Source: Candidatus Poseidoniaceae archaeon
Lineage (GTDB): Archaea > Thermoplasmatota > Poseidoniia > Poseidoniales > Poseidoniaceae
Assembly (NCBI GenBank): GCA_949373095.1
Contig: CASIBY010000005.1
Span: 110,955 to 174,954, forward strand
Direction: 5' to 3'
DNA length: 64,000 bases
The notes below the pieces were generated by a model, which saw only the letters and a program-made list of their open reading frames with translations, did no database searches and was not told the DNA's origin. Position numbers and translations under genes: made by a program. This document shows positions 16,602 through 36,623 of this stretch, one piece after another (positions within the stretch are counted from its first letter, which is position 1; each line of letters starts with the position of its first letter).

Positions 16602-16610
16602 GGTGAAACA

Positions 16611-17852
16611 ATGACGGAGAGAAGTACGGTTACAACCTCGCCCTACACGATTGGGGTTGCACCATTCCGTCCCGGAGACACTCCATCCTTTGGCGACAAA
16701 TTTGTTGAACAACCGGGTGATTTGAATCGTCCAGACCCTGCAACATGTACTTCGCAAGACACTGCACCTCATGCCTCCGGCTTGGTACGCGTTCTCACCG
16801 ATGATGGTCTCGCAGTTGGAGAATGGGACCCAGGCCTTGACGCTGAAGCACTTATTCAGGGTCTTGAATACATGATGCGACTTCGAATCTTTGACGACCG
16901 AATGATCAAAATGCAGCGAACTGGAAAACTTTCGTTTTACATGCGTTCCCTTGGAGAAGAAGCCGTGGCCATTGCGCAAACAATGGCTCTTGAAGACAAC
17001 GATTGGATATTCCCTTCGTACCGACAACCTGGTGCACAATTTGTTCGTGGACGAGATATGGTCAGTATGATTTGCCACTGCATTGGAAACACCGAAGATA
17101 ACGTTCGTGGACGACAAATGCCAGTCCATTATACTTGGAAAGAAGGTCGATTCATCTCCATTTCATCACCAGTGGGAACTCAATTTTCACAGGCAGTAGG
17201 TGTGGCAATGGCCAGTGCCTACAAAGGACTTGATGAAGCTTGTATTTCGTGGCTTGGAGACGGTACATCTGCCCAGGGAGATTACCACTACGCACTCAAC
17301 TTTGCATCTACATTCAAGCCTCCTGTCATCCTCAATGTTGTCAACAACCAATGGGCTATCTCCACACACGTCTCGTTGGCTACGGGTGGGCGTACATTTG
17401 CAGAGCGTGGCCTGGCTTACGACATCCCTTCATTCCGAGTGGATGGAAATGACTTCCTCGCCCTCTACAGCGTCACAAAATGGGCCCGTGAGCGTGCTTC
17501 AGCCGGACTTGGCCCAACACACATTGAAGTGTACACCTACAGGTCTGGAGCCCACTCTTCATCGGATGACCCCTCAGCATATAGGCCTCAGAACGAAGCA
17601 GAATTTTGGCCTGGAGGCGACCCCGTAGAACGACTTCGAGCCCACCTTGTCAAAATTGGCGAATGGGATGATGTAAAGAACACAGCACTCGCTGATAAGA
17701 TCGATGCAGAGGTCATGGCTGCTTACAAGGAGGCATGTGAATTTGGAGACCTTGCAACTGGACCGTACCCCCCAGCATCAACCATCTTCACAGAGGTTTA
17801 CGAAACGGTTCCTTGGCACATTCAAGAGCAACGAGAGGAATTGGGGAAGTGA
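16611..17852 (+). CDS. 2-oxoacid (branched-chain type) dehydrogenase E1 alpha subunit.
   Basis: TPP-binding region GDGTSAQGDYHYALNFA and YRSGAHSSSDDPSAYRP, typical of BCKDH/PDH E1 alpha. It starts 9 nt after lipA. Confidence 0.9.
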   Translation: MTERSTVTTSPYTIGVAPFRPGDTPSFGDKFVEQPGDLNRPDPATCTSQDTAPHASGLVRVLTDDGLAVGEWDPGLDAEALIQGLEYMMRLRIFDDRMIKMQRTGKLSFYMRSLGEEAVAIAQTMALEDNDWIFPSYRQPGAQFVRGRDMVSMICHCIGNTEDNVRGRQMPVHYTWKEGRFISISSPVGTQFSQAVGVAMASAYKGLDEACISWLGDGTSAQGDYHYALNFASTFKPPVILNVVNNQWAISTHVSLATGGRTFAERGLAYDIPSFRVDGNDFLALYSVTKWARERASAGLGPTHIEVYTYRSGAHSSSDDPSAYRPQNEAEFWPGGDPVERLRAHLVKIGEWDDVKNTALADKIDAEVMAAYKEACEFGDLATGPYPPASTIFTEVYETVPWHIQEQREELGK

Positions 17853-17861
17853 GGTGTTAGC

Positions 17862-18872
17862 ATGGCAAAAATGAACATGATTGCAGCCTTAAACTCTGCA
17901 CTGAAGCACCAACTACAAAGCAATCCTAACGTTGTCATCTTCGGAGAAGACGTCGGCTATTTCGGAGGAGTATTCCGAGTGACTGCCGGGCTCCAAGAAG
18001 AATTTGGACATCACCGAGTCTTTGATTCACCTCTCGCAGAAGGCGGAATTGCAGCCATTGCAATGGGAATGGGCTTGAACGGTCTACGCCCAGTTGCTGA
18101 AATTCAATTCGCCGACTACATCTTCCCTGCATATGACCAAATTGTCAATGAAATCGCTAAACTCAGGCATCGCTCTGGGGGAGAATTCACCAGCCCTGTT
18201 ACGTTTAGAACGCCAGCAGGTGGAGGAATCAAAGGAGGACACCACCATTCACAGTCTCCCGAAGCACAATTCACGCACACACCAGGTCTCAAAGTAGTAT
18301 ATTGCTCAAATCCACGAAACGCTAAGGGGCTTCTCACAAGTGCAATTGAATGTAACGACCCAGTTATTTTCTTTGAGCCTAAGCGATGCTATCGTGGCCC
18401 ATTCTACGGAGACCCCCACAATGTGCCTACATGGAATGACCATCCAGAGGGCGAAGTGCCTGAAGAGTATTATTCAATTCCTCTTGAACAAGCCAATATC
18501 GTTCGTGAAGGCTCCGCTTGTACCGTGATTGCATGGGGCGCTATGGTCCATGTGAGCGAGCAAGCAATCAAGAACTCAGGAATTGACTGCGAACTCATAG
18601 ACTTACAGACCTTAGTCCCATGGGACCGCGATACTGTCGTCAATTCGGTGAAGAAGACTGGACGCTGTGTCATTGTTCATGAAGCACCAAAGACCAGTGG
18701 ATTTGGGGCTGAAATGAGCGCTTCGATTCAAGAACGTTGCTTCTACCATCTTGAGGCACCGATTCAAAGAGTAACAGGCTGGGACACACCGTTCCCGCAC
18801 ACAACAGAATGGGATTACCTTCCAAGTCCGTCGAGGATTGCAGAAGCCATAAAGAAAACACAGGAGGAATAA
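17862..18872 (+). CDS. 2-oxoacid dehydrogenase E1 beta subunit.
   Basis: VVIFGEDVGYFGGVFRVTAGLQEEFG..RVFDSPLAEGGI and AEIQFADYIFPAYDQIVNE are E1 beta signatures. Confidence 0.92.
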   Translation: MAKMNMIAALNSALKHQLQSNPNVVIFGEDVGYFGGVFRVTAGLQEEFGHHRVFDSPLAEGGIAAIAMGMGLNGLRPVAEIQFADYIFPAYDQIVNEIAKLRHRSGGEFTSPVTFRTPAGGGIKGGHHHSQSPEAQFTHTPGLKVVYCSNPRNAKGLLTSAIECNDPVIFFEPKRCYRGPFYGDPHNVPTWNDHPEGEVPEEYYSIPLEQANIVREGSACTVIAWGAMVHVSEQAIKNSGIDCELIDLQTLVPWDRDTVVNSVKKTGRCVIVHEAPKTSGFGAEMSASIQERCFYHLEAPIQRVTGWDTPFPHTTEWDYLPSPSRIAEAIKKTQEE

Positions 18873-18874
18873 AC

Positions 18875-20152
18875 ATGGGAACATTTGAATTTAAACTACC
18901 AGATATCGGAGAAGGCGTCGTTGAAGGAGAAATCGTAGAATGGCTGGTTGCCGTTGGTGACAGCATCAAGGAAGACGACCCAATTCTCTCAGTGATGACA
19001 GATAAAGCAACTGTTGAGATCCCCGCACCTTGTGAAGGAACCGTCAAAAGCATGGTTGGAGAAGCTGGTGACATCCTCCCTGTAGGCGCTGTTTGTATCG
19101 TTTTCGAAGTTGATGGAGATGGTAATGCAAGCGAAGAAAAGGCCTCGGAACCTGCTCCTGCGAAGGAAGAGAAACCTGCAGAGAAGGCGGCAATTGAAAC
19201 ACCTGCAGCACCAACACTCCCACCAGTTGAAGCCGCTCCGGCAGCAGCCCCTATTACTCGCGCAGCAGGAACAAAAGCACTCGCTTCACCCGCAGTCCGC
19301 CAACGAGCTCGCTCAGCAAACGTAGACTTGCAACATGTTGCAGGTTCTGGACCTGCTGGACGTATCAGTCATGCAGACCTTGACCGACACATCGCAGGCG
19401 GTGCATCTGGTGCTTCATCTGCTCGCCCAATGGGTGGCTCAGCAAAAGTAGAACGAAACGGAACTGAAGACATCAAAGTCATCGGTCTTCGCAGGAAGAT
19501 TGCTGATGGAATGATGTCCTCTTACAGTACCATTCCTCACTTTTCATACTTTGAAGAAGTGGACGTTACCGCTTTGGAAGAACTGCGCCAGCACCTCAAT
19601 GCAACACGTCCTGAAGGTGCTCCGAAACTCACGTATCTGCCCTTTATTATGCAAGCATTGGTCAAGGCATTGGAACAACGCCCAGAATGCAATGCATTGT
19701 ATGATGACGAGGCAAATGTCGTAACCCGACACGAAGCCATCAATCTGGGCATTGCAACCCAAACTGACAGAGGGCTCTATGTTCCTGTTGTCAAGCATGT
19801 TGAAGCAATGGATATTTGGACTTCTGCAGCGGAAATGGTACGCGTAACCTCAGCGACTCGAGATGGAAAAGCCGGTGTTGAGGAACTAAGCGGCTCAACC
19901 TTTACCATCACCAGCCTAGGACGGCTAGGTGGACTTGGTGCAACACCTATCATCAACAAACCAGAGGTCGGAATCCTCGGAGTTCACAATGCAAAGGACC
20001 GTGCTGTCGTGCGCAATGGACACGTTGTTGTTCGCCGAATGATGAACCTCTCTTCTTCATGGGATCACCGTGTTGTTGACGGCCATGATGGCGCTACTCT
20101 CGTTCAGTTGGTTAAAACTTACTTAGAGAACCCCGCTACAATTTTTATGTGA
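18875..20152 (+). CDS. Dihydrolipoamide acyltransferase E2 (single lipoyl domain).
   Basis: The ATG at 18875 is preceded by CAGGAGGAATAAAC. The lipoyl-Lys motif is TDKATVEIPAP, the E3-binding domain is ASPAVRQRARSANVDL, and the catalytic motif is SWDHRVVDGHDGA. The ORF-track start at 18809 overlaps E1 beta and is less likely. Confidence 0.92.
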   Translation: MGTFEFKLPDIGEGVVEGEIVEWLVAVGDSIKEDDPILSVMTDKATVEIPAPCEGTVKSMVGEAGDILPVGAVCIVFEVDGDGNASEEKASEPAPAKEEKPAEKAAIETPAAPTLPPVEAAPAAAPITRAAGTKALASPAVRQRARSANVDLQHVAGSGPAGRISHADLDRHIAGGASGASSARPMGGSAKVERNGTEDIKVIGLRRKIADGMMSSYSTIPHFSYFEEVDVTALEELRQHLNATRPEGAPKLTYLPFIMQALVKALEQRPECNALYDDEANVVTRHEAINLGIATQTDRGLYVPVVKHVEAMDIWTSAAEMVRVTSATRDGKAGVEELSGSTFTITSLGRLGGLGATPIINKPEVGILGVHNAKDRAVVRNGHVVVRRMMNLSSSWDHRVVDGHDGATLVQLVKTYLENPATIFM

Positions 20153-20161
20153 GGTGATGAT

Positions 20162-21592
20162 GTGAAAACAAAGCAATGCCAAGTACTTGTTATCGGAGCT
20201 GGACCTGGAGGATATGTTTCAGCCATTCGTTCAGCGCAACTCGGATTAAAAACCATCATCGTTGAAGGAGAACGTGCTGGAGGCACCTGTCTCATTCGTG
20301 GATGTATTCCTTCAAAGGCACTCATTCATGCAGCACACACCTTCCACAATCTTGCAAAGCATGCAAAGAAGGACGGCCACATGGGAATTTCAATCCCAAG
20401 CCCGGCTGAACTCAACATGGCCAACCTAGTAGGTTGGAAGGAAGGTATCGTCGACCGTCTCAACAAAGGAGTTGAGGCCCTCTTGAAGAATGCTGGAGCA
20501 GAATTGATTACCGGATGGGCCACGTTTGAGGATGCAAAAACGGTAAAGATTGGAGAAGGCAAAGATGCAACCCTAATCCAAGCTGAACATGTCATCATGG
20601 CGCAAGGCTCGGTACCAATTGAACTTCCATTCATGCCCTACAACGACCATGTGATCTCATCTCGTAATGCCCTCTTACTTGAGGAACTACCAGAACATGT
20701 CGTCATCGTTGGCGGAGGTTACATTGGCTTGGAATTGGGAATCACCTTCCGTATGCTCGGTTCAAAAGTAACTGTTGTTGAGGCAATGGATTCAGTCCTA
20801 CCTCTCTTCGATAAAGAACTCCGACGCCCTCTTGAGTTATTCTTGAAGAAAAACAAAATCAAGGTTCACACGGGTGTATTTGCAAAAGGTTCAGAGGAAA
20901 CAAAAGACGGAAAAGTACAGCTGAATTTCATTGACAAGGACGAGAAAGATGATTCAAAGATGCAACATGTTGTTGCGGACAAGGTTCTAGTAACGGTTGG
21001 CAGAAAACCTTCTTCAACCGGTCTTGAAGCCACAGGTGTAGCACTTGACGAACGTGGGTTTGTCAAGGTAAACGACCGCTGTGAAACCAACATGAAAGGG
21101 GTTTACGCAATTGGAGACTTGTCCAACCTCGGTGAAATGCTCGCCCACGTCGCTTCCTTCCAGGGAGAAATGGTTGCTGAACTTATTGCCGGACATCGTC
21201 GCGTATATGACCCAGTTGCAGTCCCAGCCATTGTGTTCACAGAACCTGAAATTGTCTCTGTCGGACTCTCTCCAGACCAAGCAAAAGAAGCAGGCCACCC
21301 GATTATTACCGGAAAGTTCCCGCTTGGAGCCAACGGCCGAGCCTTAACACAAGAGGCTGAAAAATCCGCAGGTTTCATCCGAGTCGTGGCCCGTGAAGAC
21401 GACCATCGTATCTTGGGAATCCAAGGCGTAGGTACTCACATCAGTGAGTTGGTTGGAGAATGGACGCTTGCTCTAGAGATGGGTGCTGTACTCGAGGATA
21501 TCGCACATACAATTCATGCTCACCCAACCATGACCGAAATGACCCACGAAGGAGTTCTTGACACTCTGGGCCATGCAATTCACAAGATGTGA
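20162..21592 (+). CDS. lpdA: Dihydrolipoamide dehydrogenase E3.
   Basis: FAD-binding motif VIGAGPGGY, redox disulfide GGTCLIRGCIPSK, and C-terminal HAHPTMTE. Confidence 0.95.
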   Translation: MKTKQCQVLVIGAGPGGYVSAIRSAQLGLKTIIVEGERAGGTCLIRGCIPSKALIHAAHTFHNLAKHAKKDGHMGISIPSPAELNMANLVGWKEGIVDRLNKGVEALLKNAGAELITGWATFEDAKTVKIGEGKDATLIQAEHVIMAQGSVPIELPFMPYNDHVISSRNALLLEELPEHVVIVGGGYIGLELGITFRMLGSKVTVVEAMDSVLPLFDKELRRPLELFLKKNKIKVHTGVFAKGSEETKDGKVQLNFIDKDEKDDSKMQHVVADKVLVTVGRKPSSTGLEATGVALDERGFVKVNDRCETNMKGVYAIGDLSNLGEMLAHVASFQGEMVAELIAGHRRVYDPVAVPAIVFTEPEIVSVGLSPDQAKEAGHPIITGKFPLGANGRALTQEAEKSAGFIRVVAREDDHRILGIQGVGTHISELVGEWTLALEMGAVLEDIAHTIHAHPTMTEMTHEGVLDTLGHAIHKM

Positions 21593-21607: not shown

Positions 21608-22246
21608 TCAAATTCCATCCAAAAGAGCGTTGATATCGTTTCGGATTCCATTAAGGTCCCAATCATCACTAGTCCAACGGACACGTTGCATACCATCTCG
21701 GTCGACCAGTACAATTCCATCTGTATGTTCAACGTTGTAGTAAACTGTATGTCCACGGCCTTGAACTGATGTACTGTTGTTGCTTTCGAGTAAAGTCACG
21801 GTAATGTCAAAGTCGTTCCATACCTGTTCAATAGCAGAGAGGTTCTCATCGTTGAGGAAGGGCACAGTAACCATCGGCCATGATGTGTTGAAGGCATCCA
21901 TATAGTCAGTCAACGCAACTTCGTCGTCTCGCCAAGGATCCACTGTAATGGAAACAAATTCCAAATCATCTCCAATATTGGTGCTAAACTCTCCATACAA
22001 TACAGAGAGGTCTTGAGTTTGAGTTGGACAAACATCCCAACAGTTGGTCAGCATAAATTGGACCACAACGACCGATTCACTCCAGTTCTCAGAGCCATAT
22101 GTGTAGCCGTCATGATCATGCAATGAAAACGCATCATATCCAATTGGAACGATGTCTTCTCCGTCAAAAACATCAGGCTCAACAGCCGTACATCCACTTA
22201 GCATCATCAACGAAACGAAGACACAGCTGAGGCTGTAAGGCTTCAT
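21608..22246 (-). CDS. SCO1/SenC-family thioredoxin-fold copper chaperone, probable lipoprotein.
   Basis: Lipobox-like MMLSGC at the N-terminus. The motif FMLTNCWDVCP (CxxxCP) and the downstream ..FVSITVDPWRDD fit the SCO1 pattern. Confidence 0.75.
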   Translation of the reverse strand: MKPYSLSCVFVSLMMLSGCTAVEPDVFDGEDIVPIGYDAFSLHDHDGYTYGSENWSESVVVVQFMLTNCWDVCPTQTQDLSVLYGEFSTNIGDDLEFVSITVDPWRDDEVALTDYMDAFNTSWPMVTVPFLNDENLSAIEQVWNDFDITVTLLESNNSTSVQGRGHTVYYNVEHTDGIVLVDRDGMQRVRWTSDDWDLNGIRNDINALLDGI

Positions 22247-22255
22247 TGCATCCCC

Positions 22256-24598
22256 TCAATCTCGGGTCTTGAACATGAATCCAGCTCCAAGGAGTGTGAC
22301 CCACAGCCAAGAGAAGTCCCAAAAGACATCACCTATCGTTGAGGATTCATCTACGGAGTCCGGTGCATTGGTGTAGAGAACTTGAGCACCAAAGCCCCCT
22401 GGACCGCCCCCGCCACCTGGACCGCCAGCATCAGCATTGCTCATATCGGCCTCTCCATGATAGCAAAGTAGGAAGTATGGGAAACCAATCATAGGGACGG
22501 TTTGTGAATCAGTATTCACTACCGTTTTTGTGGAAGCGCTGATTGGCGTTGAAACATAGTAATAGGTTCCATCTGGATATTCAGGTGTTGGGCCAAACCG
22601 ACCGTTACACTGGTCCAAGTCCCCGAGGCCACTAACATAATTCCAATCATCGATTCCATTGTAACCTTGGTCTCCTCCCTCAGAAGAGCGTTCAACCTCG
22701 TAAGAGGATTTCATAGGAGCCACTTGTCCATTATCGTCCCAAGCGTACATTCCATAGATTGGATAACCGTCAAATGCCCATCCGATGATGGGGGAGTGTT
22801 GTGTTGAGTCAAGGTCTGTATAATCATAATTTACGATAGTCTGGCCATTTGGGTCATCCCAAAACTGGCACATAGCATCGTAGTGATAGTGTACGCCCGA
22901 AGGTCCATTGTGCGCCCCACAATAACCTAGGTCAATGGGCTGTCGGTCTTCATTGAAATAAAGGAACTCCAAAGCAACCGCGTCCCCACCTGGCCCTTCT
23001 TCGGGACCGAAAATCGGTACGCCGTTCACGGCAATACCAACAGGGCCACGAGCTGGAGCACACTCATATGCTCCATTTGAAGCAGGACAATTGGCGGATG
23101 AATGTCCACCGTCGGTGTCATTCACTGGCTCAAGAACGATGGTAAAGGACTCGCTTTGCTCCTCAGCATTTGCAGCAAATGCTGAGAGCCAGTTGTGGTT
23201 GGGAATTGAATTGGAGTTGATTTGCATCGTTGTGGACGTAAAGGATACCGAAACCTCGCATTGGAACCAAGGCCCTGAGCCTCCTCCACCGCCTTCCTGT
23301 CCATCACCACGTGTATTCGCCGTGTAGCTATTTCCGTCCCCATTGAGGTCTTTAGCCCACGCACCTTGTCCATTGAGACAGAGGAATGAGTCTTCATGTG
23401 ACCAGTCTGGTATTGGGCATCCATCAGCACCCACTGCAGTTCCAGCAGGTGTATTGGGGCACTGGTCTACAGCATCGTTAACGGTATCACCGTCGGTATC
23501 ACGTTGAGACGGTGAACATCCGGTGGCATCAGCAGCCTCGTTTGCGGGAGTTGCCGGACAGAGATCTGCAGCATTGTTCACACCGTCATTGTCATCGTCC
23601 AATTGACTTTGTGAGCATCCGTTAGCGTCCACTGATTCATTCGGCATTGTATTTGGACAGGCATCCATGTCATTCATGATTCCATCTTCATCATCATCGG
23701 TTTCAGAGTCTGAACATCCAGTCGAATAGACGGGTTCCCCTTCGGGAGTTGAAGGGCATTGATCTGAGTCATCAAGGACTGCGTCACCATCTGCATCCCC
23801 AACTGGCTCTGGAGGCATAGGCAAGACAACCCTCACAGTGAGATCTGTTTGGGTGAAAATACCACACTCGGAAATGATATCCCCTTCGGTATTGTGTGAC
23901 TCGGTGTTAACGATGATTTCGTAAGCTCCTGTGCTTTCATTAATTTGACTTCCAACGAGAAGAGCTGGACTTTGGCCAAGAGGGTGATATTCTACGGTAC
24001 AAGAACCGGGGAACTGATGTAAAACCAGTCCACTAAGTGTCCCGTTGGTCTCATTCTCAACTGGCTCATCCCACCGGAACGTCAGTGTTACTTGTTGTTC
24101 AAGAGGAGCGACAATAATCAATTCACTGAGCATCTTTTCACTAACCTGTTGTTCATCATCAACAGCAATCAATTCAACAATCCATTCCCCTGGGTCTTGG
24201 AGTGAGGTCTCAACCGACCATGCACCATTCGAAGCAGGAGTAATGTTGTAGGCAGTGAGTTCTGCAAAATTAGGGTCAAGCATTCGCACGGAAAGTGATG
24301 TATTTTGAGGGACTTCGTCAGTTACGAAACCTGAAAGGGTGGCGTTCTCACCCGTCCAATCCATTGAAACTACAGCAGAGGTCAAAACGACGGGAGGATT
24401 GTTTACAATCACCGTAGTATCTTGTTCGGAGACTACGGGTTCATCCTGTTCCTCTTCGCTCGTTGAATCCATAGCAACAAGGGAAAAACCTGCCCCTATG
24501 AGAAGGAATGCTAGAACCAAACTAAGCACGAGAGACTTTGAGTCCATGCCGTCAATGTTCCCCATACCGCATATAGTACTAGCGGGGGGGAGCGTCAT
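22256..24598 (-). CDS. Secreted, C-terminally anchored protein with Ig-like N-terminal domains, four TSP3 repeats and a YHYH domain.
   Basis: Signal anchor MDSKSLVLSLVLAFLLIGAG; the likely true start is M18 at nt 24547. DxDxDG..D.CP.TP.G..V...GC is repeated 4 times (nt 23414-23800). The YHYH-family pattern is GYCGAHNGPSGVHYHYDAMC ... DQCNGRFGPTPEYPDGTYYYV ... FPYFLLCYHG. A Gly-rich linker and terminal TM WLWVTLLGAGFMFKTRD follow. Confidence 0.8.
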   Translation of the reverse strand: MTLPPASTICGMGNIDGMDSKSLVLSLVLAFLLIGAGFSLVAMDSTSEEEQDEPVVSEQDTTVIVNNPPVVLTSAVVSMDWTGENATLSGFVTDEVPQNTSLSVRMLDPNFAELTAYNITPASNGAWSVETSLQDPGEWIVELIAVDDEQQVSEKMLSELIIVAPLEQQVTLTFRWDEPVENETNGTLSGLVLHQFPGSCTVEYHPLGQSPALLVGSQINESTGAYEIIVNTESHNTEGDIISECGIFTQTDLTVRVVLPMPPEPVGDADGDAVLDDSDQCPSTPEGEPVYSTGCSDSETDDDEDGIMNDMDACPNTMPNESVDANGCSQSQLDDDNDGVNNAADLCPATPANEAADATGCSPSQRDTDGDTVNDAVDQCPNTPAGTAVGADGCPIPDWSHEDSFLCLNGQGAWAKDLNGDGNSYTANTRGDGQEGGGGGSGPWFQCEVSVSFTSTTMQINSNSIPNHNWLSAFAANAEEQSESFTIVLEPVNDTDGGHSSANCPASNGAYECAPARGPVGIAVNGVPIFGPEEGPGGDAVALEFLYFNEDRQPIDLGYCGAHNGPSGVHYHYDAMCQFWDDPNGQTIVNYDYTDLDSTQHSPIIGWAFDGYPIYGMYAWDDNGQVAPMKSSYEVERSSEGGDQGYNGIDDWNYVSGLGDLDQCNGRFGPTPEYPDGTYYYVSTPISASTKTVVNTDSQTVPMIGFPYFLLCYHGEADMSNADAGGPGGGGGPGGFGAQVLYTNAPDSVDESSTIGDVFWDFSWLWVTLLGAGFMFKTRD

Positions 24599-25463
24599 CC
24601 ATTACCAGGGACAAATCGTGAAAGTTACGGGGTCTTTTCCTTGAGAATAAATTCAACCAACTCAACATATAGAACATAAGGCTACGCTCTATTAGCCATG
24701 CAGGAATGTTGGATTCCTTCGTCTTGTGAAGCGCTGATAAATCACTCCAATGTTCCCGAGGAAATTCATGATGAGCCGAATGATAACCGATGTTAAACCA
24801 AATCAAATTGACTGCCCCTGTGAAATTACGAGAGTAATCGAGGGTTGAGGGTTGACTGGCTTCTGGACCAGAACTCGGACGGGCCCCTGCATGTTGTAAG
24901 TAGTTGGCTCCAAGCAACCAGTGAAGACCGTGCATTTGAGGGAGGAACACCAGGATGAACCAAAGTTGCAAATTCACTGAAGCCAGAATGATGGTAGATG
25001 TTCCGATGAGGATGACTTCAAAAAGCGGTTGATAATCACTTTTTTTACTTCGTTTCCTAAGGTATTTCAGAGAGGTCGGCACGACAACGGTCAAGGCTTG
25101 GAACGGATGAAGCAAGTACCCCAAGAGATGATTGTGATGTCCCCCAAAACGATAGGTCCGAGTCTCATCGTCTGGACCGTGGTTAAAGCGGTGATGATTA
25201 CCAATATGAGACGGGAAGAAAACATAAGACGGAATGCCTTGAATGACGCTCAGATAGGCGTCCGTGAGGCGATTAAGAGGCTTCAATCGCCACATTCGAA
25301 GATGAGTATGATTGTGTTGAACCACGGAAAGGCCGACCGAGAGAACCAGCATGAGCAGATAGAGATACCACTGAATCCCGTAAATCCACTGCCAGGCCAT
25401 CAGAGATGGATACAGGACCATGTAGACCAATGATTGAAGATCCGCCCAACGAACCAGCATCAT
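24579..25463 (-). CDS. Membrane fatty-acid desaturase family protein (three His boxes).
   Basis: His boxes HNHTH, HIGNHHRFNH and HSAHHEFP, with several hydrophobic helices. The start shares nt 25463 with the upstream stop codon. Confidence 0.85.
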   Translation of the reverse strand: MMLVRWADLQSLVYMVLYPSLMAWQWIYGIQWYLYLLMLVLSVGLSVVQHNHTHLRMWRLKPLNRLTDAYLSVIQGIPSYVFFPSHIGNHHRFNHGPDDETRTYRFGGHHNHLLGYLLHPFQALTVVVPTSLKYLRKRSKKSDYQPLFEVILIGTSTIILASVNLQLWFILVFLPQMHGLHWLLGANYLQHAGARPSSGPEASQPSTLDYSRNFTGAVNLIWFNIGYHSAHHEFPREHWSDLSALHKTKESNIPAWLIERSLMFYMLSWLNLFSRKRPRNFHDLSLVMDDAPPR

Positions 25464-26383
25464 CAGTTCTCCAATCCAAGATTGAGCCGCATTTTCTCAA
25501 GATGGGCATGGACGTGCTCAACAAAAAAGCCGTGCATCAAAAAACGGTATGAGAGCCCTGTAGGCCCGACAAGAATCATAGGGAACCGGTTGTAAGCAAT
25601 ATCAGCAAAATGAGTAGCACCAACAATGTCATCAATCAATAGGCCGACTGAATGATCGAATTGAAACGAATTGATTGCTGCCTCGTATTCCTTTGCGGTG
25701 AGCCAGAAACAAAATGAAGTTTTGAACAGTTCATGTGCTGTTTCAAAATCCAAGAATTGCGTCCATTTCTTTCGCTGAGTACTGTAGTCAACCTGAACGG
25801 GCTGCCAGTTCGCCCATGAGAGTTCTCTGTCCTCAATCGGCCATAGTGTGCGGTCGGGTTCCTCAAGGTCTCGCATGGTCATCAATACCCCCTGATCGTG
25901 ATGAACGAAGGTCTGCACCATCAAGTCCCGTATCATCTTTGGATAGATGAGAACCGGTTCAACATCTTCCTTCCCCGAATTATCAATCACGAAATTCAGT
26001 AAATTGCTTTCAGCTTGGAAATGTCTTAGGATGAGAACATTAGCCTCCGGGCGAACAAAGTTCTTCATGAAAAAGCAAATCTGCCATTGCAGGAAACGAT
26101 GTGCTTTCCATTGGATTGGAATGAGCCGCTTGACATAATAGGTGATATGAAGCGTGATTGTGAGAAGAATCCGGAGGGTTGGTAAGATGATAATTCGTAG
26201 TGGATTCTTGAGGTCCTTCAACCAAAACTCCTTGGCTTCATCATCAAGAGGCAAACTTTTGTCACCGGTCAAGGCATCAGAAAGTGTTGCAGGCATCCTG
26301 CCATGATTCCCCGACATCATCTTTGCACGCTTACGCTGCATTCGTTGTTCCTTACGGCTTAGGGGTCTTTCATTCAAGCTCAT
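25463..26383 (-). CDS. Hypothetical protein (306 aa) with a basic N-terminus plus one hydrophobic hairpin; family not recognised.
   Basis: The ORF is translationally coupled on both sides (overlap 26370-26383 upstream, 25463 downstream). It has the hydrophobic segment LRIIILPTLRILLTITLHITYYV and the His-rich C-terminus GFFVEHVHAHLEKM. I recognised no family. Confidence 0.6.
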   Translation of the reverse strand: MSLNERPLSRKEQRMQRKRAKMMSGNHGRMPATLSDALTGDKSLPLDDEAKEFWLKDLKNPLRIIILPTLRILLTITLHITYYVKRLIPIQWKAHRFLQWQICFFMKNFVRPEANVLILRHFQAESNLLNFVIDNSGKEDVEPVLIYPKMIRDLMVQTFVHHDQGVLMTMRDLEEPDRTLWPIEDRELSWANWQPVQVDYSTQRKKWTQFLDFETAHELFKTSFCFWLTAKEYEAAINSFQFDHSVGLLIDDIVGATHFADIAYNRFPMILVGPTGLSYRFLMHGFFVEHVHAHLEKMRLNLGLEN

Positions 26384-27119
26384 GTTCTACTTCCTCCAGT
26401 TGTAGTCGGTACAATCGTGCAACGACTCGAGATGTTTTGATAATTGAACGAACTGTTAATTCATCCACGCATACCTCGTTCAGCATGTCGTAAAAACGTT
26501 CCATATGGTCCCCGTCATTATGTCCGTGGTAGGTCATGAAGCGAGTTGAATCCTCACCAAGCCCTGTTAGTTCCTGAATACGTTCAGCCCAAGAACGAGC
26601 CATCTTTTCTCCCAGTCCCTCAATAATCCACATCGCACCCAAGAGGTCAACAGGATTGGGACGGGATGAGCGGTGCATCAGAAAACCATGAAGGGCTTCT
26701 GAACCAACGTTCCGTTCCATCCCCAAAATGTCATTCAAGATTCCACCAGAGGCAACATAATCCTTTTCCAACAGTTCGTAATCACGGTGTTCATCTACAG
26801 CATGGCTAATGATTGTTGAACGAATTTCTGCATGATCCCGGTCAAAACTACTCGCAGTACGCGTAATCCAACGTGAGCCCTCAATAACCTGCTGCCTGAG
26901 GTTCCTCAACAAACAGAGATGGTCGTTAACCGTGTAGGTTCCTAAATCGATACGGCGTAGTAGGGGGACCGTTGAAAGGTCTCGTTCAAATCCCAACCAA
27001 ACTCTCAGAAGTTGTTGTAGGCAACGTTGAGCGTGGGGATTCAAATCTCGCTCATTCTTCGAATTCAAGGGTTCTGTGTGGCCAAGACTGCCATCAATCG
27101 CTATTTCACCGTCGTTCAT
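26370..27119 (-). CDS. Heme-oxygenase-like diiron oxidase/oxygenase (iron-containing redox enzyme family; TenA/PqqC/CADD-like fold).
   Basis: Ligand-bearing motifs are spaced as in the CADD/UndA/BesC/SznF family: ISHAVDEHRDYELLEKDY, WIIEGLGEKMA and TYHGHNDGDH (HxxxDxxH). The protein is all-helical and 249 aa long. Confidence 0.7.
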   Translation of the reverse strand: MNDGEIAIDGSLGHTEPLNSKNERDLNPHAQRCLQQLLRVWLGFERDLSTVPLLRRIDLGTYTVNDHLCLLRNLRQQVIEGSRWITRTASSFDRDHAEIRSTIISHAVDEHRDYELLEKDYVASGGILNDILGMERNVGSEALHGFLMHRSSRPNPVDLLGAMWIIEGLGEKMARSWAERIQELTGLGEDSTRFMTYHGHNDGDHMERFYDMLNEVCVDELTVRSIIKTSRVVARLYRLQLEEVEHELE

Positions 27120-28252
27120 GATCTCACCGCCGTCAGTTGCATGTATGTTGTATTGAACCGTCCGCTTTCAGGAACAAAACAAAGAATAGTATCTCCATCA
27201 CTGATGGCGACGTCTTCGGTTCTAAGAAATTCATCGATCATGATGAATAAGGAAGCGGCTCCTGTATTTCCCCGAGTGTAGAGGTTGGTCCACCAGCGCT
27301 CTTCAGGTATACCAACTCCGGCGGCATCAAGTAAATCCAAAATTTTGTCCTTGAAATGGTGGCTGGAATAATGGCACAAGAAATGATCGATTTCACTCGG
27401 GACACTGATACCGTTTTCCACGAGTCTAAGATATCCATCCACCCCCATGCGAACAATGTTGTCAAGCAATCGAACTTCTTGGCGAAGGAGGAGGGCTCCA
27501 GCCTTCTCTGCTTCACCGTAGGTATCGTAATCCTGCCACGTCCGTTCGTCATCGGGAAGTCCCGCAGAACCGACGCTCATACATGTTGGAAGGGCATGTG
27601 CATGAGAGAAACCATGAATCCAATCAATTCGGAAACTGAATCCCTTCGGAGCAGGTTTGTCCTGTAAAAGCAAGGCACCAGCTCCATCAGAAAGCATCCA
27701 GCGAAGAAATTCAGTATTGAAATCAATTCGTTTGGAAGCATATGTCGATTCTGTTGCAGCCTCATAGCGTTGCTTCTTGAGAAGACGGCTTGAGAGTTCA
27801 CTCGAAACTACAACGGCTGCTTCGTGGTCGCCCAAACGAAGGCTGTTCCATGCGGCTTTAAGAGCCATCATAGATGATGAACAAATCCCATGGGTAGTCA
27901 AAATTTCAATCGCTGGAAGGCCCAATTCAGCTTGGACCATACTCGCCATTCCGGGGGCTGGGAGGTCACCTTGGGTTGAAGCGACTGCAAGCATTCCGAT
28001 TTTATCCCGGGTTAGGAAAGCTCTGTCAAGACACTGTTCAGCCGCATTTGCAGCCATTTCCGTATTGCTATGTGTTGTTTTTTGGTTCCCATCAATGGCG
28101 TAATGGCGGGTTTCAATTTTATTCGCTTTTTGGATTTGAACACGAAGCGAAGAAGGCTTTCCATGAACTGCTCCCAAAATCCCTTCAACTTCACCAACTG
28201 AAATCGGCGGACCTGGAAGAAAGGCTCCGGTGCTGGTAATGTAAACCGTCAT
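27116..28252 (-). CDS. Beta-ketoacyl synthase III (FabH)-like thiolase-fold condensing enzyme.
   Basis: N-terminal ITSTGAFLPG. The nucleophile Cys lies in HGICSSSMMALKAAW, His in FLCHYSSHHF and Asn in YTRGNTGAASLFIMIDE. Length is 378 aa. Confidence 0.85.
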   Translation of the reverse strand: MTVYITSTGAFLPGPPISVGEVEGILGAVHGKPSSLRVQIQKANKIETRHYAIDGNQKTTHSNTEMAANAAEQCLDRAFLTRDKIGMLAVASTQGDLPAPGMASMVQAELGLPAIEILTTHGICSSSMMALKAAWNSLRLGDHEAAVVVSSELSSRLLKKQRYEAATESTYASKRIDFNTEFLRWMLSDGAGALLLQDKPAPKGFSFRIDWIHGFSHAHALPTCMSVGSAGLPDDERTWQDYDTYGEAEKAGALLLRQEVRLLDNIVRMGVDGYLRLVENGISVPSEIDHFLCHYSSHHFKDKILDLLDAAGVGIPEERWWTNLYTRGNTGAASLFIMIDEFLRTEDVAISDGDTILCFVPESGRFNTTYMQLTAVRS

Positions 28253-28833
28253 GCATCCACCTGAGGTTTGCCGTGTTTCTTCTCATAAGCATAACATCGC
28301 CACCATTCCTGCATGTAGGGGAACACGACAAAGACGGCCATGAGTACCATGTAGAATGTTGCATAGTTACCGGAGTCACCTAGAGGTTCCTTTCTCCATT
28401 CGATACTAAATCCACCGCCCCAATTGAGAGTTGCCGTATCGAGGAACACCTCCCACTTGCGAACGATGATGAGAAGAATTAGGAAGAAAGGGAGGGTCGC
28501 CAGATAGTTGTGAGCATGAACCTCCCAAATGGAGATTTCTCGTTTACCCGTTGCGAAATGGACATCATAGTGCGCTACAACTTCGTGAGCAATGAGGGCA
28601 GCGAAACAGAGCAACATGATGAGGACATTAACTTCAAACAGAAGCGAGAGAACAAGAGGGATGCAGATTTGAACCCCCATTAGGCAGTGGATATATGCTT
28701 CTTTCAATCCGGATGTCTTTTCTATCTCGGTATTGCGATGGCACCACCAGTCAAGCATTCCGGCAACCCCCCACAGAGGAAGAAGGACGTACAAAATAAC
28801 ATTCAGGACTAATGTGGCTTCATCCATTGACAT
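28249..28833 (-). CDS. His-rich 5-TM membrane protein, first gene of the operon; family not recognised.
   Basis: Five hydrophobic helices, with His at membrane boundaries (DWWCHR, YIHCL, IAHEVVAHYDVHFA, EVHAHNY). The 4-nt overlap with the KAS III-like gene indicates translational coupling. Confidence 0.65.
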   Translation of the reverse strand: MSMDEATLVLNVILYVLLPLWGVAGMLDWWCHRNTEIEKTSGLKEAYIHCLMGVQICIPLVLSLLFEVNVLIMLLCFAALIAHEVVAHYDVHFATGKREISIWEVHAHNYLATLPFFLILLIIVRKWEVFLDTATLNWGGGFSIEWRKEPLGDSGNYATFYMVLMAVFVVFPYMQEWWRCYAYEKKHGKPQVDA

Positions 28834-28860
28834 GCCTCAGACATTCCATGTAGATTCCCC

Positions 28861-28867
28861 AATTAAA
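28861..28867 (-). promoter_or_regulatory. Possible TATA box for the 28833-start operon.
   Basis: The minus strand reads CCTTTAATTGGGG about 30 nt upstream of the ATG at 28833. It follows a hairpin (28886-28900) downstream of the nrdA stop. Confidence 0.2.
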
Positions 28868-28911
28868 GGAATCTCCGGCGCGCATACCCTCTACGAGGGT
28901 TCAGCCTACAA

Positions 28912-33169: not shown

Positions 33170-33772
33170 ATGGTCGACATTCAGGAACTGGGTCTCGTTC
33201 CTTACGGGGACGGTTTGAAAATGATGAAATCGTTGCAATCACAACGCATCAACGACGATATCCCAGATACATTGCTCATCCTTGAACATCACGAAGTGGT
33301 TACGGTCGGTCCACGCGCCCGCAACGATGGCATTCGGCCACCAGAGGATTACCCTACTGAAGCCGTTGATCGGGGCGGGGGCCTAACGTGGCATGGACCT
33401 GGACAGATTGTCTGCTACCCGATATTCAAATGGGGCCTTCGTGACCAAGAAGCATCGGTTGCTGAAATCATTACCAAAATCGAGCAGTGGGTCATCAACG
33501 CCCTTAGCACCTTGAACATTCACGGAGTGCGTGATCAGCGGATGCAGGGCGTTTGGGTTGATGGGCACAAGATTTGCAGTATTGGATTATCCTTCTTACG
33601 CTGGGTTAGTCGGCATGGCTTCACCATTAACATCGATACACCCCCCGGAAGAGTCGAAGGCGTAGCTGGATGTGGACTAACCGCTGACACAACAACGTCC
33701 CTAGCGAATCTAGGATATGATGTCGAAGTTCAAGCCATCAAACAAGCATTACTCGAAACAATGCAATTTTGA
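33170..33772 (+). CDS. lipB: Octanoyl/lipoyl transferase.
   Basis: RGGGLTWHGPGQIVCYPI and KICSIGLSF are LipB signatures. Confidence 0.88.
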   Translation: MVDIQELGLVPYGDGLKMMKSLQSQRINDDIPDTLLILEHHEVVTVGPRARNDGIRPPEDYPTEAVDRGGGLTWHGPGQIVCYPIFKWGLRDQEASVAEIITKIEQWVINALSTLNIHGVRDQRMQGVWVDGHKICSIGLSFLRWVSRHGFTINIDTPPGRVEGVAGCGLTADTTTSLANLGYDVEVQAIKQALLETMQF

Positions 33773-33776
33773 ACGG

Positions 33777-36623
33777 TCATTGGTCCCGGAGGTAATCCTC
33801 ACCGTACCATGCCCATTGGTCAAGAGTCCAACCCGCCGGCAATCCTTCTGCAGGTAAGGGTGGACCAGCTGGAGCAGCTGGAGCAGCAGCCTGAATAACA
33901 GGAGTTACAACAGGAGCGACGGGTGTCATCATCATCGGTTGGGGAAGATTAGGTTGCAAGTTAATTGACGAGTCTTCTCGGTCACGTCGTTGCACTGCAT
34001 AGCCAAGAACAACAACCGCCATAACGCAAAGGACTCCTATAATGAGGAATAACATGTTGGATGAAGAGGAATCTTCGGCAGATGCAAAGCGTGATGCATC
34101 CTTGGGGTATGAGTCGCCAGCATCAGACCAGCCGTCCCCATCACCATCTAAGCAGCCAACACGGTCTTCAGTAGAAGTACCTGAAACCTCGGGGCAATCA
34201 TCTGAAAGGTTCGTGCCCTCTTGGTCAGGATATCCATCTCCATCAGCATCAGACCAGAAGCGTTTGTCATCGGGGAAGGCATCGAGGAATCCAGCCCACC
34301 CATCACCATCAGGGTCCGGGCAGCCGAAGCGTTCCATGTCCGAAGTACCAAAAATCTCGGGACAACTGTCGGGTGTAGTACCTGTTTCAGAGTCACCAAA
34401 ACCATCTCCATCAGTGTCGGAATGTTGTGTGGCATCGTCGGGGAATGCGTCGTTAGCATCCGACCAGCCGTCGTTATCAGAATCAAGACAACCCAATCGA
34501 TCTTCAGTAGAAGTCCCAGCGTTCAACGGACAAGCGTCGCTTTGGACTCCGTCCGAAGCATCACCGTATCCATCTCCATCCTGGTCGGAATGTTGCGTGA
34601 ATTCATCGGGGAAGGCATCTGCTCCCTCTGCTACACTCCATGCTCCATCCGGATTTGACCATCCATCTCCATCTGTATCAATACAGCCGTTGCGGTCTTG
34701 ATTGGAAGTGCCTGTGACGAGGAGGCATTGGTCGCCTCCTTCCCCATCAGAATTGTCTCCGAAACCATCTCCGTCGCTATCGGACCATTGTGCGTCATCA
34801 ACTGGGAATGCGTCTACTGTGTCGCCGTAACCGTCTCCATCGTAATCAGCACAACCGATACTCGTACCGAGTGAACTCGTACCTGCCTCATTGGGGCAGT
34901 CATCAATATCGTCAGAAAAACCATCGTTGTCGTCGTCAATATCTTCGCCTAGATCTTCGCAGCCGTCACGGTCGACGTCACTGCCTGTGAAGGAGATAAA
35001 TGATGGTGGGCTTTGGGGACAAAGGTCAGTACCCGCAGATGAGGGTGAGCAGACCCACCAGGTGCTGGATTCATCACCGTCGCATATTCGGTCGTTATCA
35101 TCGTCCAAGTCTTCGCCTTGATCTCTGCATCCATCTCCATCATAATCAGTTCCTGTCAATGAATTCCAGCCGAGATCACCAGTTGGGCAGAGGTCCGAAG
35201 TATCGTAAATCCCATCGTTATCATCATCTGAATCTTCTGTTAAATCTGCGCAACCATCCGTATCATGGTCGGTTAAGGCAGAAGAAATCCATGAAAGGTT
35301 GCCCAGAGCGCATTCATCATTTACATCAAGGATCCCATCACCATCATCATCATCATCGCAAGCATCTCCGAGAAGATCACCGTCATGGTTGGCCTGGTTT
35401 GCGTTAGGAATCATTGGACAGTTGTCCACCTGATCGCCTACGCCGTCTCCATCTTCATCCATGTACGGGTCTATCCGAACAACTTCGTCCTGGCCGAAAT
35501 CGACGTAATACAAGTGCCCATTGGGGCCAATCTCAAGGCCCATGATGGATGTTGCCGAAGTTTGAATGGAATCGGTTTCAGTAGCTGCTTTACCGCTTGA
35601 ACTCAAATCATATGCAACAATTTGACCGTTGCCATATTCTGAAACAAAGAGTTGGTCGCCATCAAGTACAATCCCAGATGGCATGTTCAAACCCGATGCG
35701 AGAACACCCCATTCAATGTTCGTTATTGAGGAATATTCCTCCAAGGTCTCCATACGAGATGAATCGCTGTAGATGTTTTGAGTACTGGTTGAGGAATCGT
35801 CGGTGTTCACCCACAAGACTCGGTTTGCACCAGGGTCTGCGATGTATAAAATTCCTGAATCATCATCAAGGGTCATGTGTCCAGGAACACCCATGATGTG
35901 AGTGAGTTCGACCTCAGAATACCGCCGTACGATAGCATCAGAATGATAGTCTCGACCAGTATCGTGGTCATCTTGGAAATCATAGTACACCAATTCTTCA
36001 TAGTAGCCGTCATTGTACCAATACGCATTGTCAGAATCGTGAGCGATTCCAACTCCATAAGGGGACTCGTGATTCATATCAATGTGACTACCTAGAAGGC
36101 CATTGGCGTTGTTTTGATTCTCTACTGCAAAGTGACTGAGCGAGGATGGCCAGAGTGTTGGGCCCATGAAATTGTTTGGGGAGGCTTGGCCACAGAACGT
36201 ATTCGCTGTTTCCTGAGCAGAGCCCCACTGCCAGTCAAATTCGGGATGATAGGCCCCAAATGCAATAGCGCTGACTTCTTCCAAAAAGTGATTCCGATTT
36301 GAATCCTGACGGTTTTGAGAGACTTGATTCTCAAGCCCGGTATTCTCTACAATTGTGATGCTGTCTGTGTACTGATTTGCAATCCACAACTCATTCGCCC
36401 GCCCGGGGTGGAATTCAAGGTCCCTTGGATTAGAAAGAGCATCAGATGAGTCAGCAATAACCGTTTCATCAAAACCCATTCCAAATTGTTCTACCATAAC
36501 AGCCTCTTTAGCCGCAGTAGCATATGAAGGGATGGAGAATAAGAGAATTGCAAGCATGAAAAGTGCTAATTGCTTCTTGGCCATGCTTATGCCAGTTTGA
36601 ATGAGCATTTCATACCTTGTCAC
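33777..36623 (-). CDS. Surface protein with an NHL-type beta-propeller, TSP3-like Ca-binding modules, a TM and a Pro-rich cytoplasmic tail.
   Basis: Signal peptide MAKKQLALFMLAILLFSIPSYATA; the probable start is M14 at nt 36584. NHL-like blades include GILYIADPGANRVLWV, LFVSEYGNGQIVAYD and HLYYVDFGQDEVVRID. The Asp-rich repeats span aa 388-846. The TM is MLFLIIGVLCVMAVVVLGYAV. The tail ends PAGWTLDQWAWYGEDYLRDQ. Confidence 0.85.
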   Translation of the reverse strand: MTRYEMLIQTGISMAKKQLALFMLAILLFSIPSYATAAKEAVMVEQFGMGFDETVIADSSDALSNPRDLEFHPGRANELWIANQYTDSITIVENTGLENQVSQNRQDSNRNHFLEEVSAIAFGAYHPEFDWQWGSAQETANTFCGQASPNNFMGPTLWPSSLSHFAVENQNNANGLLGSHIDMNHESPYGVGIAHDSDNAYWYNDGYYEELVYYDFQDDHDTGRDYHSDAIVRRYSEVELTHIMGVPGHMTLDDDSGILYIADPGANRVLWVNTDDSSTSTQNIYSDSSRMETLEEYSSITNIEWGVLASGLNMPSGIVLDGDQLFVSEYGNGQIVAYDLSSSGKAATETDSIQTSATSIMGLEIGPNGHLYYVDFGQDEVVRIDPYMDEDGDGVGDQVDNCPMIPNANQANHDGDLLGDACDDDDDGDGILDVNDECALGNLSWISSALTDHDTDGCADLTEDSDDDNDGIYDTSDLCPTGDLGWNSLTGTDYDGDGCRDQGEDLDDDNDRICDGDESSTWWVCSPSSAGTDLCPQSPPSFISFTGSDVDRDGCEDLGEDIDDDNDGFSDDIDDCPNEAGTSSLGTSIGCADYDGDGYGDTVDAFPVDDAQWSDSDGDGFGDNSDGEGGDQCLLVTGTSNQDRNGCIDTDGDGWSNPDGAWSVAEGADAFPDEFTQHSDQDGDGYGDASDGVQSDACPLNAGTSTEDRLGCLDSDNDGWSDANDAFPDDATQHSDTDGDGFGDSETGTTPDSCPEIFGTSDMERFGCPDPDGDGWAGFLDAFPDDKRFWSDADGDGYPDQEGTNLSDDCPEVSGTSTEDRVGCLDGDGDGWSDAGDSYPKDASRFASAEDSSSSNMLFLIIGVLCVMAVVVLGYAVQRRDREDSSINLQPNLPQPMMMTPVAPVVTPVIQAAAPAAPAGPPLPAEGLPAGWTLDQWAWYGEDYLRDQ
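34086..34898 (-). repeat. About 4.6 tandem copies of a ~56-aa module, CP..GTS.EDR.GC.D.DGDGWSD..DAFP.D....D.DGDG.GD (protein-level repeat).
   Basis: The repeat was read directly in the translation of aa 576-846 of the 948-aa protein. It explains the Ser/Pro-rich antisense ORFs 34042..34701 and 34221..34658. Confidence 0.75.

Follow-up and report, generated by a model that had tools for sequence, protein, structure and literature searches.

Compact type III polyketide synthase operons (SrsABC in Streptomyces and ArsABCD in Azotobacter) produce alkylresorcinol membrane lipids, which are further oxidised to alkylquinones; the ring is built from malonyl-CoA (coenzyme A) by the type III synthase, and a methyltransferase and a flavoprotein hydroxylase carry out the tailoring. 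No head-to-head cyclisation of two acyl chains takes place there, unlike in the DarAB(C)/StlCDE systems of Pseudomonas, Chitinophaga and Photorhabdus and in BrtCD of Synechocystis. DarB, BrtD and StlD convert a 3-oxoacyl and a 2-enoyl thioester into a carboxy-cyclohexanedione, and its aromatisation to a resorcinol by DarA or StlC includes decarboxylation (PMC6836626). Homologs of DarB that have no DarA are recognised orphans, with products unknown, in reviews of 2019 and 2023 (PMC6836626, PMC10088813), and no DarA lies near the cyanobacterial homologs of this type (PMC6836626). Here we describe an operon of five genes in a 64,000-nucleotide stretch of a Candidatus Poseidoniaceae genome (GenBank assembly GCA_949373095.1, contig CASIBY010000005.1, positions 110,955 to 174,954; hereafter the window), a member of the marine group II (MGII) archaea. 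Its ketosynthase (KS) is a full-length homolog of StlD, and the constant partners of the KS are a heme-oxygenase-like diiron oxidase (HDO) and a protein of the DUF6999 family. Homology searches identify these three genes as a widespread bacterial module and not an archaeal peculiarity, and by analogy with the DarB systems the operon probably makes an oxidised lipid of the dialkylresorcinol type.

The operon occupies 28833..24579 on the minus strand and is composed of five open reading frames (ORFs) that overlap in a chain: memH (28249..28833, 194 aa, a predicted five-helix membrane protein), KS (27116..28252, 378 aa), HDO (26370..27119, 249 aa), the DUF6999 gene (25463..26383, 306 aa) and a fifth gene of the FA_desaturase superfamily (24579..25463, 294 aa). 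The memH stop and the KS start overlap by 4 nt (ATGA, GCATGACG), as do the KS and HDO genes (ATGA, TCATGAAC); the overlap is of 14 nt between HDO and DUF6999 (ATGAGCTTGAATGA) and of 1 nt between DUF6999 and the fifth gene (TGATG, CTGATGATG). The original prediction, made from the letters of the DNA, had proposed one co-translated unit in an archaeal host. The five ORFs and the four junctions are as it described them, and the archaeal host is borne out by homologs at 76-97% identity that are named Candidatus Poseidoniaceae or Poseidoniales and by an archaeal aTrm56 encoded within the window. The superfamilies that it had proposed for three of the genes were likewise recovered by profile searches (thiolase/KAS III-type domains, PF14518 and PF00487), and the motifs that it had quoted are real and conserved in all three. 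In the surface ocean no archaea are more abundant than MGII.

The KS aligns over residues 2-376 with the crystal chain of StlD, the Photorhabdus ketosynthase/cyclase (5gk0; E 6e-72, 39% identity), and the best FabH structure matches part of the protein only (E 6e-12). Cys124, His294 and Asn329, which form the condensing-enzyme triad, are unchanged across nine diverse homologs from nine loci, together with Glu152, which lies within an SSE motif common to StlD. Full-length similarity to StlD and the Cys-His-Asn triad place the KS with this group. Against the curated NCBIfam models it scores 375 bits (StlD/DarB, NF005293, curated cutoff 450) and 321 bits (DarB, NF053539, curated cutoff 550), and its fused bacterial homologs, described below, score 418-445 and 382-394 bits, respectively. 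Because the KS scores lie under the curated cutoffs, its sequence defines it as a sister subfamily of the characterised StlD/DarB enzymes and not as a canonical member.

The same gene had been read in the original prediction as FabH-like, with a bearing on bacterial-type fatty-acid synthesis in MGII. That it is a condensing enzyme of the thiolase fold is correct, and thiolase/KAS III-type Pfam domains are in fact matched; that it is a generic KAS III/FabH is not, to judge from 64 bits with the fabH model TIGR00747 (cutoff 292) and 80 bits with PRK09352 (cutoff 249), compared with the 375 bits of the StlD/DarB model. A FabH-type initiator of bacterial-type fatty-acid synthesis, combined with oxidative tailoring of the acyl chain, would agree with the generic KAS III domains and with the bacterial-like lipid features proposed for MGII (PMC6461757); we regard it as very improbable, as in addition to these scores the operon contains no acyl carrier protein (ACP), malonyltransferase, reductase or dehydratase, and StlD is unable to elongate (bioRxiv 10.1101/2022.10.20.513026). 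A KS of the StlD/DarB head-to-head cyclising group would be expected to build a six-membered ring from two acyl chains that already exist. Since this is neither priming nor elongation of fatty-acid synthesis, little can be learned from the locus about bacterial-type synthesis de novo, and the cassette has no bearing on such synthesis in MGII archaea.

The distribution of the cassette was established by scanning 185,579 species-representative genomes with the KS alignment and by contig look-ups for homologs of DUF6999 and memH. This gave 93 loci (designated by L numbers), which were classified by tblastn and then by ORF analysis. KS, HDO and DUF6999 are found together in at least 70 species-representative genomes belonging to about eight bacterial phyla, and in essentially all loci that are not truncated by the end of a contig. 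The taxa include MGII, Gammaproteobacteria, Myxococcota, Melainabacteria, Cyanobacteria, Bacteroidota, Acidobacteriota, Acidimicrobiia, Verrucomicrobiota and Ramlibacter. Among the cultured carriers in the Gammaproteobacteria are Sessilibacter corallicola, Shewanella sp. 1CM18E, Arsukibacterium, Halomonas, Billgrantia, Pseudoalteromonas sp. A601 and Nitrincola; cultured or named carriers in the Cyanobacteria and Bacteroidota are Leptolyngbya, Microcoleus, Chitinophaga, Pedobacter and Flagellimonas.

As the original prediction would require, the gene order is kept in relatives: it is repeated in the genomes of dozens of bacteria and of six further species representatives of Poseidoniales, and over the two domains it is conserved in more than 80 loci whose flanks differ. 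The genes that flank the cassette are unrelated between lineages, and it is therefore a self-contained module. A chance juxtaposition of unrelated genes, or an artefact of annotation, has a negligible probability, being refuted by the four start/stop overlaps, by the order conserved in two domains and by the fusion of two of the genes in 51 loci.

This fusion, a single ORF with KS and HDO joined and a length of 604-648 aa, is present in 51 of 90 loci, namely in all 51 of the tier more distant from the window (for example L051:6989-8863 and L047:6995-8863, within L041-L093). It is carried by Cyanobacteria, Bacteroidota, Acidobacteriota, Acidimicrobiia, Verrucomicrobiota, Myxococcus, Ramlibacter and Cellvibrio, and was confirmed with Pfam and NCBIfam on the Chitinophaga and Microcoleus proteins; no description of such an architecture was found in the literature searched. 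In the nearer tier, to which MGII belong, KS and HDO are separate genes (39 of 39 loci) and neighbouring coding regions either overlap or are no more than a few nt apart, except at the apparently disrupted HDO of L005 and L006. memH is limited to the nearer tier and to one Verrucomicrobiota locus. The conserved core consists of the StlD/DarB-like KS, HDO and DUF6999, and memH precedes this core in the clade that includes MGII.

The cassette is thus comparable to DarAB/StlCDE in several respects: its KS is a full-length homolog with the same triad, it is small and self-contained and would draw fatty-acyl thioesters from primary metabolism, and desaturases and other lipid tailoring genes are often nearby. 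It differs in having neither a DarA/StlC aromatase nor an ACP gene, the constant partners being instead DUF6999 and an HDO that is usually fused to the KS. With a KS below the curated cutoffs it matches the orphan clades of DarB without DarA (PMC6836626, PMC10088813). In genomes DarA is annotated as 'dialkylrecorsinol condensing protein', a name returned for no protein of the operon, DarA being judged here by profile models and annotated names. Of the five operon proteins the KS alone has a match in NCBIfam; HDO and DUF6999 match none of its models, including any DarA-type model should one exist. No aromatase of the DarA/StlC type was detected beside the cassette, and neither an aromatase nor a carrier protein was detected in the operon or among the genes tabulated for the inspected loci. 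The DarB-type logic is recognisable from the sequences, and the oxidative half appears to be different and uncharacterised. The earlier statement that no characterised pathway has this gene set holds for the searchable literature, in which no publication was found that links the cassette to a product, that mentions DUF6999 or that pairs a heme-oxygenase-like enzyme with dialkylresorcinol chemistry; broader queries returned canonical DarAB systems only, such as listianol with DarB and DarA. The idea of an archaeal peculiarity that accompanied this statement has to be given up, because the module is widespread in bacteria.

HDO matches PF14518 (Haem_oxygenas_2) with 35.6 bits (E 1e-8, cutoff 28.9). 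Residues H106, E110, E167, H198, D202 and H205 are unchanged in 86 sequences and correspond to the set of three histidines and three carboxylates, including HxxxDxxH, that binds metal in the heme-oxygenase-like diiron oxidases. The protein shares both the family and the complete ligand set with UndA, BesC, SznF, CADD, PolF and AetD. Its best solved relative, by sequence match, is 3dde, an uncharacterised protein of the heme-oxygenase-like fold (E 5e-6). From its sequence HDO is a genuine member of the superfamily, related to the described HDOs at superfamily level only; unlike it, none of these was found in the searches to be fused to a ketosynthase or to share an operon with one. A reaction type that is relevant here is that of UndA, which performs the oxidative decarboxylation of fatty acids with loss of a beta-hydrogen. 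In a cultured strain of Arsukibacterium perlucidum the HDO gene appears to be divided into two ORFs of 73 aa and 171 aa in two independent assemblies (L005/L006:10677-11361), which suggests a frameshift or a pseudogene.

Of the two proteins that had been left as unknowns in the original prediction, the one of 306 aa belongs to DUF6999 (PF22523; 299.7 bits, E 2e-89, profile positions 7-275 of 275), and the one of 194 aa, memH, did remain outside any Pfam or NCBIfam family. DUF6999 is a small family; in a set of 1.84 billion proteins its members fall into 196 clusters at 50% identity. In 28 diverse members H121, H162, D163, D212, D243 and H284 are invariant and R120 and E289 nearly so; NCBIfam searches with the same 28 members at E<=10 gave noise only. 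Its AlphaFold2 model (predicted local distance difference test score, pLDDT, 92.7) is all-helical with a single long hydrophobic N-terminal helix, by which the protein is predicted to be anchored in the membrane. Profile comparison with hhalign gave no similarity of DUF6999 to the HDO domain of the cassette and was negative for FA_hydroxylase.

memH has 263 homologs at E<=1e-3, with 50-57% identity in Halomonas, Arsukibacterium and Myxococcota, and it adjoins a KS gene in all five of the homologs whose contigs were inspected. Across 25 sequences the residues D28, W29, C31, H32, E45, H49, H83, E84, H88, D90, E104, H106, H108, E176, R179 and C180 are invariant; six are His, six Asp or Glu and two Cys, and they are situated at the ends of predicted membrane helices (AlphaFold2 pLDDT 90.6). 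This pattern makes memH a putative membrane metalloenzyme or redox partner. It has no detectable relation to the membrane His-box diiron enzymes of PF00487 (AlkB type included), the family of the fifth gene, or of PF04116; with FA_hydroxylase the hhalign probability is 0.5%, that is, the two are unrelated. Profile searches against PDB sequences returned no match for DUF6999 or memH. Five homologs of memH (P0322, P0325, P0356, P0359 and P0437) are publicly named 'diguanylate cyclase'. This looks like a propagated misannotation, because neither GGDEF nor any other Pfam domain is detectable in them.

The fifth enzyme belongs to PF00487 by score (85.9 bits, cutoff 29.7) and by its His boxes: HxHxH, Hx3HH, NYLQH and HxxHH are unchanged in six homologs. 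This layout of four motifs may be nearer to that of AlkB-type hydroxylases than to that of acyl-CoA desaturases. Searches against solved structures gave no match at E<=1, and for the role in olefin formation of the UndB kind that had been considered there is no specific support. Orthologs of this window-type gene are found in the same position in the MGII loci L014, L015 and L019 (59-65%), and upstream of the fused KS-HDO gene in Cellvibrio (L089, 46%) and Ramlibacter (L091, 36%). In four other MGII loci (L001, L008, L016 and L018) the position is taken by a gene of the acyl-CoA-desaturase type (L001:8921-9670 and L008:12463-13290, for example) that has no similarity to the window enzyme. L001 and L019 have the same upstream genes, encoding RNB and P-type ATPase proteins, yet their fifth genes are of different types. 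On these comparisons the fifth gene is an exchangeable accessory outside the conserved core, with two unrelated PF00487 subfamilies alternating in one position. The exchange recalls the 'overwrite' replacement that has reportedly affected the proteorhodopsin genes of MGII.

Other accessories recur as well. A gene of the fatty-acid-hydroxylase family (PF04116) is directly upstream of the cassette in 17 loci, and in Bacteroidota it is found where MGII have memH; acyl-CoA-desaturase-type PF00487 genes are present in 14 loci, the window type of PF00487 being that of MGII, Cellvibrio and Ramlibacter, and a short-chain dehydrogenase/reductase gene in 6. All these recurrent accessories are lipid-type oxidoreductases. 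Steroidobacteraceae-like and Ectothiorhodospiraceae genomes have, linked to the cassette, a two-domain gene resembling phospholipase D and cardiolipin synthase (L012:7492-8997, L027:9783-11192 and L002:5128-6634), which in L012 is followed after 3 nt by memH; this linkage hints that the product may be attached to phospholipids or work with them.

From these homologies and from gene linkage a chemistry can be deduced that would proceed in three steps. In the first, Michael addition and Claisen cyclisation by the KS, as with DarB and StlD, would turn a 3-oxoacyl and a 2-enoyl thioester into a 2,5-dialkyl-carboxy-cyclohexanedione. Both of these substrates are intermediates of beta-oxidation, available to MGII as CoA esters; since they are such intermediates and all Poseidoniales genera encode fatty-acid degradation (PMC6461757; PMC6336850), the archaeon would need no fatty-acid synthase to feed the KS. 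The second step would be the O2-dependent oxidative decarboxylation of the unstable KS product by HDO, as UndA does with fatty acids. The fusion of the two enzymes points to an HDO that acts on the immediate, labile product of the KS, and UndA-type chemistry on a carboxy-cyclohexanedione would yield a ring double bond, which would tautomerise to give a dialkylresorcinol; HDO is thus a plausible non-homologous replacement of the missing aromatase DarA. In the third step DUF6999 and memH would work in the membrane and oxidise the lipophilic product on its ring or its chains, hydroxylation of the ring towards a hydroxyquinol or quinone being one example; the fifth enzyme would introduce a hydroxyl group or a double bond into an alkyl chain. 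Oxidative tailoring of a lipophilic product is suggested by the membrane association of DUF6999 and memH, by their invariant ligand-like residues and by the exchangeable fifth enzyme. The product would likely be a membrane phenolic or quinone lipid. To the complete sequence of a KS-made carboxy-cyclohexanedione, decarboxylation and aromatisation by HDO and tailoring in the membrane we attach an even degree of belief and doubt.

Several points weigh against this scheme. No product or activity is known for any member of the cassette, and the UndA-like decarboxylation is an analogy at the level of the superfamily, not something that the HDO sequence specifically predicts. For DUF6999 and memH the putative metal sites are deduced solely from invariant His, Asp and Glu residues. 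The structure prediction and fold search that the original prediction had recommended for these two proteins did give confident models and did not give matches in the PDB: for DUF6999 nothing was significant (the top hits, at E 0.23 and a TM score of about 0.15, being the HDOs PolF and BesC), and for memH the top E was 1.2. Moreover, in two loci (L004 and L071) KS and DUF6999 are present without HDO, so that HDO is not universally essential, and the real counterpart of the aromatase may be DUF6999, which stays with the KS more persistently than any other partner.

In that case DUF6999 would be the obligatory counterpart of DarA, and HDO would tailor the ring or a chain or prepare a substrate; the roles of the two proteins would possibly be swapped with respect to the steps given above. 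The two loci without HDO, where DUF6999 still adjoins the KS, would then mirror the minimal pair of DarB and DarA, and the invariant set of His and carboxylate residues in DUF6999 is compatible with such a role. The KS-HDO fusion of 51 loci argues that it is HDO that handles the immediate KS product, and DUF6999 is predicted to be membrane-anchored and resembles no oxidoreductase in fold, profile or NCBIfam searches; this assignment is consequently one that we hold to be unlikely, though worth keeping in view.

The KS also falls outside the curated StlD/DarB and DarB cutoffs, which is a point in favour of a non-cyclising head-to-head Claisen condensation, or of another reaction, after which HDO would oxidatively decarboxylate the acid so formed (beta-keto or alkyl-branched) and give an olefin or a ketone hydrocarbon, in line with the olefin idea of the original prediction. 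HDOs such as UndA do form terminal olefins, and accessories of the desaturase family are common around the cassette. In the cyanobacterial review a different reactivity is proposed for the clades without DarA, which may not make carboxy-cyclohexanediones (PMC6836626), and reviewers have doubted that these clades form the ring (PMC6836626, PMC10088813). Nevertheless, the identity of 39% to StlD over the full length, the SSE motif and the triad bring the KS far closer to StlD than to any linear-condensing enzyme, partners of the OleBCD type were not found, and the solved-structure searches returned no similarity specific to UndA or UndB. A hydrocarbon product is for these reasons distinctly improbable in our judgement.

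Horizontal acquisition of the operon, for which a phylogeny had been suggested, is indicated by the KS tree, in which the MGII sequences form a single clade inside the bacterial group with split genes and memH, beside a Myxococcales sequence; the tree was calculated by neighbour joining with StlD as the root, without bootstrap support and without canonical DarB sequences, and to this extent it weakens the case. The MGII genes are nested among those of Gammaproteobacteria and Myxococcota, and the window proteins are 50-63% identical to bacterial ones for memH, KS and HDO and 43-49% for DUF6999. Because the MGII clade is nested within bacterial sequences, the genes appear to have been acquired horizontally from bacteria, and a single acquisition of the operon would be the simplest reading. 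It fits the extensive interdomain transfer that has been described for Poseidoniales (PMC6461757). This is the first archaeal instance of a DarB-type cassette that we could find.

The cassette is broader than the original prediction supposed, namely a widespread bacterial module with a Rosetta-stone fusion. The orphan homologs of DarB without DarA gain from it a concrete set of genes and a testable mechanism, with the KS physically fused to a diiron oxidase, and an uncharacterised module comes to light in many bacterial phyla, including cultured Halomonas, Shewanella, Pseudoalteromonas, Chitinophaga, Pedobacter, Microcoleus and Myxococcus. The DUF6999 and memH families, with their invariant ligand-like residues and no structural relatives found, are now placed in a defined biochemical context. 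If the proposed chemistry is right, the globally abundant and uncultured Poseidoniales would route intermediates of fatty-acid breakdown into an aromatic lipid of bacterial type, with a bearing on their membrane biology, on interdomain gene transfer and on the reading of lipid biomarkers in the ocean; a fatty-acid-derived redox lipid in MGII could carry electrons, protect the membrane as an antioxidant or work as a signal, and be a potential biomarker. That MGII make a novel lipid class, of non-isoprenoid dialkyl-hydroxyquinol or dialkyl-quinone phenolic lipids formed through a KS-coupled HDO acting as a novel decarboxylating aromatase, with DUF6999 and memH as two new families of membrane metalloenzymes whose folds the PDB lacks, is a tentative idea that we consider rather unlikely in its full form.

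The 78 nt that separate memH from the upstream ribonucleotide reductase (RNR) gene (28834..28911, minus strand) are, as read from the sequence, the probable promoter region of the operon. A TTTAAT element about 29-34 nt upstream of the memH ATG at 28833 is a possible candidate promoter, and a CCCTC-GTA-GAGGG hairpin follows the stop codon of the RNR gene. Downstream on the same strand is a gene for a secreted YHYH/TSP3 protein of 780 aa (22256-24598). Its first listed start overlaps the fifth gene, a segment resembling a signal peptide begins 17 codons past this start, and other genomes show no linkage of this gene with the cassette. L014, which is the closest species representative, has the flanking RNR and 2-oxoacid dehydrogenase genes in common with the window.

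Relative to the cassette, this 2-oxoacid dehydrogenase operon (lipoyl synthase, E1alpha, E1beta, E2 and E3; 15594-21592) lies 3 kb downstream and a gene for a LipB-type lipoyl transferase (33170-33772) 4 kb upstream. In Photorhabdus the Bkd complex provides the branched substrate of StlD. A functional tie to the dehydrogenase operon was considered and rejected, the proximity being common only to L014, and the nearness is probably coincidental. Genes related to copper were also noticed near the cassette: SCO1/SenC and the YHYH protein in the window (21608-24598), and P-type (HMA/E1-E2) ATPases in two MGII loci (L001:2889-5171 and L019:3688-6009) and in Nitrincola (L038:2681-5002). A copper link drawn from SCO1 and from the Cu-ATPases of L001, L019 and L038 was likewise rejected, there being only two independent contexts; memH or DUF6999 may bind copper instead of iron.

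Elsewhere in the window a giant ORF of 2971 aa (2517-11432) with transglutaminase-core, MG2, Ig-like and DUF4129 domains probably encodes a surface or secreted protein. There are two large proteins with TSP3 repeats, the one already mentioned at 22256-24598 and another at 33777-36623. Finally, a photolyase-related protein, composed of DPRP and the FAD-binding domain of DNA photolyase, is encoded at 37325-38995, and a patchwork history of horizontal transfer has been described for the photolyase genes of Poseidoniales (PMC6461757).

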